From the NCBI GenBank assembly GCA_965285935.1, contig OZ260662.1:98394001-98458000 (forward strand): a DNA stretch of 64,000 bases, in the 5' to 3' direction. Shown here piece by piece: positions 61,101-63,667 of the stretch. The notes under the pieces were generated by a model. That model was not told the origin of the DNA. It searched no databases and saw nothing but the letters and a program-made list of their open reading frames with translations. Both the position numbers and the translations under genes were made by a program. Source of the DNA: Ophelia neglecta (lineage: Eukaryota). Each line of letters starts with the position of its first letter. The first letter of the stretch is position 1.

Positions 61101-63667
61101 TACCCACATGACGTCACAGCACTCTTCCCAAATGATCGAGCACGAGGGCGAATATGATGGTAATGTCACACAACGTCACGCTAACAAACGCCTTTGATTG
61201 GCTAACAACTCCAGTTGATGCCACAGCCCCTAGCTACTGCGCTCTATGTCACGTGGTTTCCCTAATCGCCAATCACACGGAAACCACAGCCCACGTTTGC
61301 GTTCAGATTCAAAATCTACCTAAGCATGCAGGAACTATTTCTACATGATGCTTATTGGCTAAGTGTTAATTTATTCAGCGAATCTTTCCGAATATTGTAT
61401 CTTTCTATTTCATTCCTTGAATCTGAACACAAATGAGCCACGCCAAAGTGCCGTATACTACTAATACTTCTCTTTTTAGGTCTATCGTAGGATTATACTA
61501 CTGTAGATCAAGAATGTGAATGGACTAGTTATGAAAACTACTCTCTGAATGGCCTGTTACGATAAGGCTATCAAAGTCCGGCCTAACTAACTTACCCTGC
61601 CTATCATTAACTGCTCTCTTACAGATTCACTGTTAGTATTCTAAGTGGACTAACCGACCTAGCCGATAGATCAGCCAGCGGCGGTGGTGGTGGTGGGTCC
61701 GGAGGTAGCTCCGGTGGCTCCGGGGGCGGTTCTGGTTTCGCCTCCGGCTCCGCTGCTTCAGGCGGCGGAGGCGGTGGATTTTCGATGTCCGGAGGCGGCG
61801 GCTCCGGGGGAGGTTTCTCAATGTCCGGAGGTGGTGGCTCTGGTGGCTTCTCAGTGTCCTCCGGTGGCGGAGGCGGAGGCGGAAGCGGCTCTGGAGGAGG
61901 CAACTCCTCCGGCTCCTCCTCTGCTACAAGTGTCACTACTACTAGTACTACTACTAAAGTCGAAAAGAAAGACGACAATGAAGCCATCACTAAAACTACT
62001 ACCACAACTGTATCACAGTCGTCTTCTGACTCACCGAAAAAGGAAGATGAAGGTACTCCAATGCGCTTTGAGGACTAATTCAATGTCCCGTGTCTGTACA
62101 CATAATGGATCTGCACGAGAGCATGTACCAATTGTATGTGTCCAACGGACATGCATGGTATTTTAATCAACACGTTTGTGTTACAATATATACTAACGTA
62201 CGTTTACTTTTTCATTTTTAGCGAGTGTTTTGTTTTATTTCTTGTGTGCTTGTTGTACTAATATCACTGTCTGCATGTAGACATGCCTATTCTAACTTTC
62301 ACTGACCGTGTTGTCAATCTCTCGGTTTCGGTTTCTCACTAGGGTTGGCTTGAGACAGATCGTAGAGCAAATAATTAGCACTCAGGAGAATCGTCTTTCG
62401 GACGTGGCCTACACGATCAGACAGACTGAGCAAACCTCAGGTGGTGGGTACAACCGCGTGCATGACAATGCATGATTTTAACTCCTTTATTACTTCCTGT
62501 TCTAATGCCTAACTCCAACACCAGACGGCACTATAACACAACTACTTACTGCGGTGGTCGCCAGAAGGCGCCACTCAGAGGGTATTAATCTAACTGGCAC
62601 CCAATCCCCCCTGTGGCGCCAACCTTCGTGAAACTAAAAACCAGAGTGTTACTTAAATGTTGTATGTAATGTGTATGACCCATTCCAAGCTTATTGGGTC
62701 GAATTCATTTTCATTTTTCGTTTTATTACCATAAGTTGTTTATAAGTAGATTTCATATAATTTATCGTTTTACTATGTCTCCTTATATATTGTTAACACC
62801 ATTGTCGTTATTAACAAGAGAATTTAAATATATTTGAATGACTAGATTTTTATACCTTCTCTATGATTCTTGTCATTTTAAATGTTGTTGTGTGTACTTT
62901 CAAGGTAGCTCGTCTTACCTTGAGCCATTGCACGCTGTATGTCTGTGATTTATTATAAAATAAAAAATGCTCGCATTTTTCCAATAATTGTTTAACAATT
63001 TTGCTTAATGTTTGAACTACTAGCAACATGTTATTGAATTGAATACATGGATACTCATTCATGCAAACAATCACTTCACGTGCTAATATGAACCATTCCA
63101 GGGAATTAAAAAGCGCTGCGAAATCACTGACTACTACTACTTTAATCACGTGGTAAGAGCCTCGATCTCGTTTCTGTTGTATTCACGTGTACACTTGTTG
63201 TCATGTGACTCATGTGTCCAGTTGCATGCCTCAACCACTGTAGCTGCGCACCTTTTTAATTCTCATTTTGTGGCTTCTCTCAGGGGTATGCTTCCATCCG
63301 GCATACAAAACAAACAGTGTATAGAACTCATCACCCTTCCGACCCAGTCATGACCCGATTAAAAGGGCACCACATCCCTGGAGTGGGGCTTGCACTTCTG
63401 TTTCCCTCCAACTCATCTCTCCTCCACTCATCGCTCCATCTGTCTCTCTGCTTTCACCCAACAACAGAAAAATCAGATACGGTGACCTAATTCTATGTAT
63501 TATGATCCCGTACCCTCCCTCTAGATTCTTCCCTAAAAGTTAGTCAGGTGGTCAAAGGAGAGATGTCTGCCAAGACCACTTATCAAAGAAGCGCCAAAGG
63601 ACCGGTCTCCATCTCCGAGTGCGCTGCCGACGGCAAATGCATCGCCCTGGAAAACACAGGCAGAAAG
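24568..63667 (+). CDS. Protostome-type cytoplasmic intermediate filament protein (neurofilament NF60/NF70-like), multi-exon gene, 3' end beyond the window
   Basis: join(24568..25139,37467..37653,49374..49469,53398..53559,57900..58025,58305..58400,58734..58858,[one linker exon],63525..63667...). All introns are GT-AG with matching phases. IF signatures [19 protein letters not shown] and [16 protein letters not shown] are present, the rod is ~353 aa, the LTD starts [17 protein letters not shown], and there is no basic NLS. Confidence 0.95.
30610..30626. repeat. Poly-G tract (G17), potential G-quadruplex
   Basis: Direct reading, in intron 1. Confidence 0.85.
37467..37653 (+). CDS. IF exon 2: coil 1B (not in the ORF track)
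   Basis: Acceptor ttattcag|A; (K)[62 protein letters not shown]; donor GTGAGT; phase 2->0. Confidence 0.95.
48447..48475. repeat. G-rich tract, potential G-quadruplex
   Basis: Four runs of 3 or more G, read directly. Confidence 0.7.
49374..49469 (+). CDS. IF exon 3: end of coil 1B
   Basis: ttgtag|[38 protein letters not shown]; 96 nt; phase 0->0. Confidence 0.95.
53398..53559 (+). CDS. IF exon 4: linker L12 and coil 2A
   Basis: ctacag|[60 protein letters not shown]; 162 nt; phase 0->0. Confidence 0.95.
55233..55259. repeat. Poly-G tract, potential G-quadruplex
   Basis: G4-ct-G16-a-G4, read directly, in intron 4. Confidence 0.8.
57900..58025 (+). CDS. IF exon 5: coil 2
   Basis: ttttcag|[48 protein letters not shown]; 126 nt. 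Confidence 0.95.
58305..58400 (+). CDS. IF exon 6: coil 2
   Basis: ttgcag|[38 protein letters not shown]; 96 nt. Confidence 0.95.
58734..58858 (+). CDS. IF exon 7: rod end with the IF consensus motif
   Basis: ctgtag|[41 protein letters not shown](R)|GTGAGC; phase 0->2. Confidence 0.97.
59164..59197 (+). CDS. Candidate short alternative terminal exon (nearly tailless isoform)
   Basis: Pyrimidine-rich acceptor ...ctctttctggctgatttccccag. Phase 2 reads (S)[12 protein letters not shown]-rich sequence follows, with AATAAA at 59726. Confidence 0.4.
60267..60328 (+). CDS. IF alternative linker exon 8a
   Basis: cttccctcacag|(R)[20 protein letters not shown](G/D)|GTAGGT; 62 nt; phase 2->1. Confidence 0.85.
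61068..61159 (+). CDS. IF alternative linker exon 8b
   Basis: attcacaacag|(R)[36 protein letters not shown]; 92 nt; phase 2->1. Confidence 0.85.
61625..62078 (+). CDS. IF alternative terminal exon 8c: Gly/Ser-rich tail without LTD
   Basis: Acceptor ctgctctcttacag with CTAAC branch-type motifs upstream. Phase 2 opens 150 codons: (R)[27 protein letters not shown]...[10 protein letters not shown]...[43 protein letters not shown]. Confidence 0.85.
62343..62443 (+). CDS. IF alternative linker exon 8d
   Basis: gtttctcactag|(R)[32 protein letters not shown](G). Donor after 62440 (CAG|GTGGTG) or 62443 (GTG|GTGGGT), both phase 1. Confidence 0.85.
63525..63667 (+). CDS. IF exon 9: start of the lamin tail (Ig-fold) domain
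   Basis: ccctccctctag|(D)[53 protein letters not shown]; phase 1->0. Confidence 0.93.

Follow-up and report, generated by a model that had tools for sequence, protein, structure and literature searches.

An intermediate filament gene with an array of linker exons

The DNA analyzed here, 64,000 nucleotides of the forward strand of Ophelia neglecta contig OZ260662.1 (assembly GCA_965285935.1, positions 98,394,001 to 98,458,000; hereafter the window), carries exons 1 to 9 of a gene that, as judged from its sequence, is an annelid cytoplasmic intermediate filament (IF) gene of the type with a lamin tail domain (LTD). Seven rod exons, located between positions 24568 and 58858, join in frame, and PF00038 matches exons 1 and 7 above the cut-off. 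The rod is followed by an array of linker exons (8a, 8b and 8c) and by exon 9, the first exon of the LTD (Table 1). Between 8b and 8c lies a glycine-rich open frame, here called 8x, which a sequence-only reading had taken for a terminal exon that replaces the LTD. We argue below that positions 61625-62052 are probably a fourth internal linker exon, mutually exclusive with the other three and located between the rod and the LTD.

A search with the exon 1 protein retrieved 461 proteins at E<=0.001; the 120 listed are Filament-domain proteins, most of them with an LTD. Since the named homologues among the matches listed come from Owenia, Dimorphilus and Phascolion, the gene was assigned to annelids. 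Exon 9 gave a weak fragment match to PF00932 (E 0.0089, below the cut-off), and the close homologue P0018 matched it at 4e-15. No lamin hallmarks were seen: the last exon ends with TIYTS* and has no CaaX, and inspection of the linkers by eye revealed no basic nuclear localization signal. A type I or type II keratin is likewise not indicated, as LTD exons are present and those homologues that bear a name are IFs of annelids or sipunculans.

A genome search with PF00038 returned at least six matches in three places, namely this gene, a lamin-like locus on C8 and a site on C2 where the match is weak and below the cut-off. Besides lamin, the gene described here is the only cytoplasmic IF locus found in the genome (a lower bound). 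The lamin-like gene (G000:C8:78190000-78203600, minus strand, L089-L090) has an SPT head motif and RKRKR. A short glycine run was also seen in the head domain encoded by exon 1 of the cytoplasmic gene, at window positions 24757-24780.

The glycine-rich candidate exon carries a predicted in-frame donor

The acceptor ...CTCTTACAG closes at 61624, directly 5′ of the candidate exon, and the phase-2 frame that follows contains 150 open codons (61626-62075) before TAA at 62076-62078, in agreement with the sequence-only reading. Residues 18-97 of the frame are 57% glycine and 29% serine, with four phenylalanines, two methionines and one valine. In glycine loops, aromatic or aliphatic residues interrupt runs of Gly and Ser, as they do in this segment. 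The three GGFS[M/V]S units reported earlier do vary synonymously, their GGFS codons being GGT GGA TTT TCG in the first, GGA GGT TTC TCA in the second and GGT GGC TTC TCA in the third. All four glycine codons are in use (18, 15, 12 and 3 times), and the same codon is found in 8 of 31 adjacent Gly-Gly pairs, random choice giving ca. 30% as calculated from the codon counts. Since same-codon pairs are near the random level, the repeat is one of protein and not a microsatellite, an origin that this codon mixing rules out; the third-position variation also supports the earlier view of the loop sequence as coding-like. Two more frames, one on the plus strand (61663-62166) and one on the minus strand (61619-62074), are open across the repeat, as is expected from GGN repeats. 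The Thr-rich charged end with SPKK was found as described, SPKK being located at residue 136 and TPMR at residue 144 of the 150-residue frame.

That the exon is terminal had been deduced without noticing an in-frame phase-1 donor at 62052/62053. A cut at this donor leaves a 428-nt exon of 3n+2 length that runs from phase 2 to phase 1. The four linkers, 62, 92, 428 and 101 nt long, are then all 3n+2 and all go from phase 2 to phase 1, the 428-nt value being dependent on the predicted donor. Exon 7 ends in phase 2, and any one linker would exit in phase 1 into exon 9; it follows that exactly one linker keeps the frame, while two break it. Both the splicing of 8x and its mutual exclusion by frame are predictions made from the DNA sequence. 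Exons 1-7, 8x and exons 9-11 together give 720 open codons, to which exon 12 adds 13, for a protein of 733 aa. No AATAAA or ATTAAA occurs between the candidate's stop codon and position 62959, a site 3′ of exon 8c.

Table 1. Features of the IF gene (window positions unless a locus is given; a slash in a donor marks the exon-intron boundary).
Feature	Position	Strand	Remarks
IF coding exon 1	24568..25139	+	Head, coil 1a, start of coil 1b; phase-2 donor
Rod exon 2	37467..37653	+	
Rod exon 3	49374..49469	+	
Rod exon 4	53398..53559	+	
Rod exon 5	57900..58025	+	
Rod exon 6	58305..58400	+	
Rod exon 7	58734..58858	+	End of coil 2; phase-2 donor CAG/GTGAGC
Linker exon 8a	60267..60328	+	62 nt, phase 2 to 1; matching linkers in homologues
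Linker exon 8b	61068..61159	+	92 nt, phase 2 to 1; close homologue P0018/P0204 has 8b and LTD
Candidate acceptor region	61585..61624	+	CTAAC branch-like motif, pyrimidine-rich, CAG; from sequence
Candidate glycine-loop linker exon 8x	61625..62052	+	Predicted 428-nt cassette, phase 2 to 1
Gly/Ser/Phe loop segment, residues 18-97	61677..61916	+	Composition count
Rival phase-1 donor GTG/GTGGGT	61693..61698	+	Nonamer same as that of the 8c donor; would make a 68-nt exon
Three GGFS[M/V]S units	61773-61790, 61809-61826, 61842-61859	+	Residues 50, 62, 73
Thr/Ser-rich charged segment	61917..62051	+	SPKK and acidic end EDE; translation
Predicted donor AAG/GTACTC	62053..62058	+	Phase 1, after acidic EDE
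Read-through beyond donor to stop (GTPMRFED*)	62053..62078	+	Coding solely in the terminal form
Linker exon 8c	62343..62443	+	101 nt, phase 2 to 1; L013 and L021 have the same donor, GTGGGT
First AATAAA 3′ of candidate's stop	62959..62964	+	
Exon 9	63525..63667	+	First LTD exon; phase-1 acceptor
Exons 10, 11 and dual-frame last exon 12	L002:2342-2449, 2981-3097, from 4822		Beyond the window

Slot-matched exons in other genomes

Other genomes were scanned for exon 7; at least 232 stretches were confirmed and 80 loci were kept. Of the 79 loci that were parsed, 52 have GT after exon 7 and 27 look spliced, one of the latter (L060) being in fact genomic. Twelve genomic loci cover the region from exon 7 to exon 9, eight with a single clear linker and four with arrays. 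In two of the four arrays (L013 and L021), an exon rich in Gly, Ser, Tyr and Phe is present, and the order is 8a, 8b, glycine exon, 8c. The two glycine exons have phase-2 acceptors, which lends support to the phase-2 joining from exon 7 predicted earlier for the candidate. They are 248 and 218 nt long, respectively, both 3n+2, and end with an acidic DD. Their donors, ACG/GTACTA (L013) and ACG/GTACTC (L021), match AAG/GTACTC of the candidate; since GTACT was found in none of 65 reference donors, this match is not a matter of generic consensus. The 8c donor hexamer GTGGGT is also identical in the window and in the L013 and L021 arrays. The L013 and L021 glycine exons are set apart by four internal indels (3, 27, 3 and 3), each a multiple of 3; in their first 11 codons, three synonymous and two missense changes were counted. 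Peptides read beyond the donor in the window, L013 and L021 are short and unlike each other (8, 12 and 13 residues).

Some further features of these loci were noted. In the genomic locus L060, exon 7 appears to have a GC donor (L060:2328). A motif at the contig end in L018 (4464-4484) resembles, by eye, that 5′ of the L013/L021 glycine exon acceptor and hints at a third genome that has this exon. Between 8c and exon 9, ca. 350 nt to which no exon was assigned (L013 5212-5559 and L021 4900-5223) are 72% identical; this block is a possible splicing-regulatory element.

Evidence against an internal exon 8x and alternative readings

A number of results weigh against the assignment of 8x as an internal linker. 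Its splice junctions are predicted from sequence and none has been observed. No protein out of 234 stored carries motifs of 8x or of the L013/L021 glycine exon, and direct protein searches yielded no true homologue of the candidate frame. When the 150-residue frame was compared by phmmer with 1.84 billion representatives, one match, P0121, was returned and rejected as a homologue, being a PepSY-like protein matched through glycine runs. This blank is weak, since clustering at 50% would conceal splice forms. Residues 99-150 searched against longer proteins gave 549 candidates, none at E<=10; the Pfam search of the frame returned New_glue alone (E 0.024, below the cut-off), and a search that skips simple repeats found no second genomic copy of the candidate exon. 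Scored with a small matrix, the donor at 62052 ranks second (6.0; the gene's other donors score 3.0-11.5) and is exceeded by the rival donor at 61692 (9.3), although the training set included the nonamer of the latter. Moreover, the frame has 30 GT sites, 19 of them in phase 1. As such sites come cheaply in glycine codons and 61692 ranks higher, the window alone cannot decide the donor.

The comparison with other genomes has weaknesses of the same kind. The candidate aligns to the L013 and L021 glycine exons barely above the level set by composition (z 2.2, 28 of 1000 shuffles, and z 1.2, 131 of 1000, respectively), so its putative orthology to them rests on slot, phase and donor. A nucleotide comparison of the window array with L013, L021, L018, L016 and L030 found only exon starts, glycine repeats and short matches at chance level. 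For 8a and 8b, the donor hexamers of the window are not those of L013/L021, a 9-nt indel that separates L013 from L021 just past the donor is also a multiple of 3, and both of their read-throughs end with VL*. L013 and L021 are close relatives (z 12.7, introns in common) and therefore count as about one lineage. The other two complete multi-linker arrays (L016 and L030) showed no such glycine exon.

The three runs listed for window positions 57800-64000 are of one sample and contain intron sequence; none was listed as RNA, which tells nothing on expression in either direction. Allelic variation was taken from DNA contigs of this sample that collapse alleles, one row with a gap in the glycine repeat being left out. 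Substitutions in the candidate frame comprise two synonymous changes, M>V and T>S, with no stop. They are not depleted there, 4 of 17 substitutions in 2861 nt falling in the 453 nt of the frame, a point against 8x, although with alleles collapsed and one row left out the allelic differences were uninformative. At window 60955-64000, contigs and assembly disagree at 13 of 3046 positions, and in upstream intron pieces at 58038-59883 they do so at 29 of 263 and 20 of 253 positions. The low rate over the linker array may reflect constraint on the spliced region or collapsing of contigs. At window position 61158, a T>G allele of the 8b donor (ATG/GT vs AGG/GT; Asp/Glu) was seen, which could change the strength of this predicted donor.

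In the terminal form proposed earlier, exon 7 is joined to 61625 and translation stops at 62078. Exons 1-7 plus the frame to the stop do give the ca. 605-aa protein that had been announced (605 aa), an LTD-less chain with a glycine-loop tail, and the frame does stay open up to the stop, with a second S/T-P-x-K/R motif, TPMR, beyond the donor. Consistent with this form are also the moderate score of the donor at 62052, the homologue P0084, which has a short non-linker tail directly 3′ of the rod, and above all P0208, a homologue that has no LTD and in which Gly/Ser/Met loops are followed by a Thr/Val-rich end and a stop. The alignment of P0208 to the candidate (z 3.1, 2 of 1000 shuffles) is a point against an internal 8x, and this protein record, with putative junctions, is the best support for a terminal-exon architecture. 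However, P0208 and P0072 reach their glycine stretches via an 8b-type linker and not from exon 7, and all six spliced loci without an LTD that were examined lose it through a skip to the last exon. Because the phase-1 donor matches those of L013 and L021, the exon lengths are 3n+2 there as well, and the nearest poly(A) hexamer lies ca. 880 nt off, past 8c, the terminal exon was given up as the principal reading. We consider it unlikely as the main product; the 605-aa form could be a minor one.

It is quite unlikely that the acceptor region is used in some other way, i.e., joined in phase 1 from 8a or 8b, which reads DSLLVF* as reported earlier (confirmed by eye) and would yield a short product or one prone to decay, joined in frame from 8b to the AG at 61662 or 61674, or followed by a cut at the 61692 donor. 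The glycine stretches of P0072 and P0208 that follow an 8b-type linker would fit, as would the AGs at 61661-62 and 61673-74, which are in the correct phase (by eye), and the 61692 donor, which has the same nonamer as that of 8c and gives a 68-nt linker. Yet the downstream AGs have no pyrimidine tract, the slot-matched exons of L013 and L021 open in phase 2, no DSLLVF-like tail was seen by eye among the stored LTD-less homologues, and a 68-nt exon would leave 120 open codons with synonymous variation unexplained. Very unlikely, in our view, is that the exon has decayed or is not expressed, or that the stretch is low-complexity DNA of an intron and has no present product. No protein record in any species searched, absence from two of four complete arrays and allelic differences that are not depleted could be read in this way, whereas 150 open codons in the required phase behind a strong acceptor, third-position variation between the repeats, the lack of stops in the listed alleles and the frame-preserving indels of the L013/L021 slot-matched exon speak against it. 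Thus, an internal linker exon at 61625-62052 remains the probable reading.

Two more acceptor-like sites were seen by eye in the array, ACTAAT..TTTTTAG ending at 61479 and TACTAAC..TTTTTAG ending at 62221, each followed by a short frame. These sites (61460-61480 and 62191-62222) may belong to poison exons or to short terminal ones, or may provide 8c with a distant branch point.

LTD loss and the dual-frame last exon

The last exon can be read in two frames. Entered in phase 0 from exon 11, exon 12 encodes DRATHVQKTIYTS* and closes the LTD; entered in phase 1 from a linker, it (L002:4822-5022) encodes a longer Ser/Gln-rich tail of ca. 67 residues. From the donor at 62052, one path would lead through exons 9-12 to the 733-aa protein with the LTD retained. 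On another path, skipping to the shared exon 12 in its second frame would yield an LTD-less protein of 663 aa with the Ser/Gln-rich end.

A linker is joined to the last exon in the second frame in 6 of the 27 spliced-looking loci (L008, L009, L058, L035, L040 and L050), the joins in the last three running into an early stop, and 5 of the 234 stored proteins have the second-frame C-terminus. This skipping in homologues makes the 663-aa glycine-loop form plausible, not via the stop at 62078. In another species, the LTD-less protein P0072, in which a Gly/Phe stretch follows an 8b-type linker, occurs alongside the LTD-bearing P0073. Short homologous tails were considered as donor read-through, an explanation that proved wrong in the three cases in which DNA was checked (L035, L040 and L050); P0001, P0002, P0072 and P0208 are protein records, and their junctions are putative. 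The dual-frame last exon is possibly of more interest than the glycine exon.

Comparison with known intermediate filaments

The gene shares its rod, LTD and tail start with lophotrochozoan cytoplasmic IFs (Phascolion strombus O97339, Owenia fusiformis CAH1785440-443 and Dimorphilus gyrociliatus CAD5124847-849). The Owenia records have two alternative linkers, a Gly/Tyr linker with an acidic end followed by the LTD (P0108/P0219), and one without Gly enrichment (P0107/P0220). In contrast to these IFs, the candidate linker has a greater length, 142 residues, does not begin with the usual xGL[RK] and has the additional Thr-rich SPKK segment. At least 8 glycines per 20-residue linker window were counted in 24 of 117 LTD-bearing homologues, some of them near duplicates, and exon 8c itself is Gly/Met-rich in L013 and L021.

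The keratin-like character claimed for the exon therefore stands as a glycine-loop likeness in composition and falls as a special property of 8x. Like the loops of K1/K10, lamin and loricrin, it consists of Gly and Ser runs with Phe or Met as anchors, placed in an end domain of the IF that is not helical. Unlike in K1/K10, the rod and LTD exons are of protostome type, the loop segment is ca. 80 residues long with only four Phe, and it likely lies 5′ of a retained Ig-fold. Keratins and lamins both bear glycine loops, those of K1/K10 being modelled as an aromatic zipper (PMC11121635). Since lamins are listed in that source with glycine-loop repeats, such repeats are not keratin-specific.

A lamin-homology domain is present in most protostome IF tails; that of isomin is without it, being rich in Gly and Ser and related to the tails of IFC-1/2 (PMC3065449). 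Thus, Gly/Ser-rich, LTD-less protostome tails have already been published for isomin and C. elegans IFC-1/IFC-2 (PMC3065449); these are separate genes, whereas here such a tail would be a splice form. Alternative C-termini through splicing are described for annelid lamins (PMC10125929), and splice variants of some cytoplasmic IF genes are recorded in CyMoBase (PMC4448529). In a literature search that covered few subscription journals, we found neither an array of linker exons in an annelid IF gene nor a dual-frame last exon described.

Among molluscs, the squid neurofilament (NF) genes NF60/NF70/NF220 and Helix IF A/B produce tails with and without an LTD by alternative processing. As in these systems, a single gene here would yield LTD-bearing and LTD-less tails, but by choosing one of four 3n+2 linkers and, independently of the linker, either the LTD or a direct join to a dual-frame last exon. 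There is also a single SPKK here and not a KSP array. No named NF sequence is present among the homologue matches listed. Platynereis Nf70 is reported in epidermal-like, ciliary-band/ciliated and muscle cells (PMC5913682; bioRxiv 10.1101/167742). Given these sites of Nf70, a putative orthologue, and the sole cytoplasmic IF locus found, the term neurofilament-like used in the sequence-only reading does not mean nerve-only.

A possible role of alternative tails

The product of an 8x-containing transcript would be a chain with a long flexible spacer made of aromatic-anchored glycine loops and a possible proline-directed phosphorylation site, SPKK. The spacer may act like the variable domains of keratins, setting filament spacing and bundling; both this function and the tissue are conjectural. 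As glycine loops are ordinary among homologues, their presence here is less of a surprise. A practical caution is that gene models can terminate such exons at the read-through stop. Elsewhere in the assembly, at ca. G000:C2:98493700-98495100 (L005), frames of 279 and, following it, 109 codons look transposase/integrase-like by eye and are flanked by tandem repeats.

Vertebrates diversify IF tails through gene duplication. With a single cytoplasmic IF locus found besides lamin (a lower bound), the choice of tail by splicing is the evident route to tissue-specific filaments in this genome. One can imagine a combinatorial tail code in which four frame-locked linkers are combined with an LTD that is kept or skipped, so that the glycine linker together with second-frame exon 12 would make an epidermal, keratin-like, LTD-less chain converging on K1/K10 by splicing instead of gene duplication; we regard this as a doubtful though conceivable extension of the data. 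With the linker array and the dual-frame last exon, the idea that glycine-loop tails follow epithelial mechanics in animals other than chordates can be put to a simple test.

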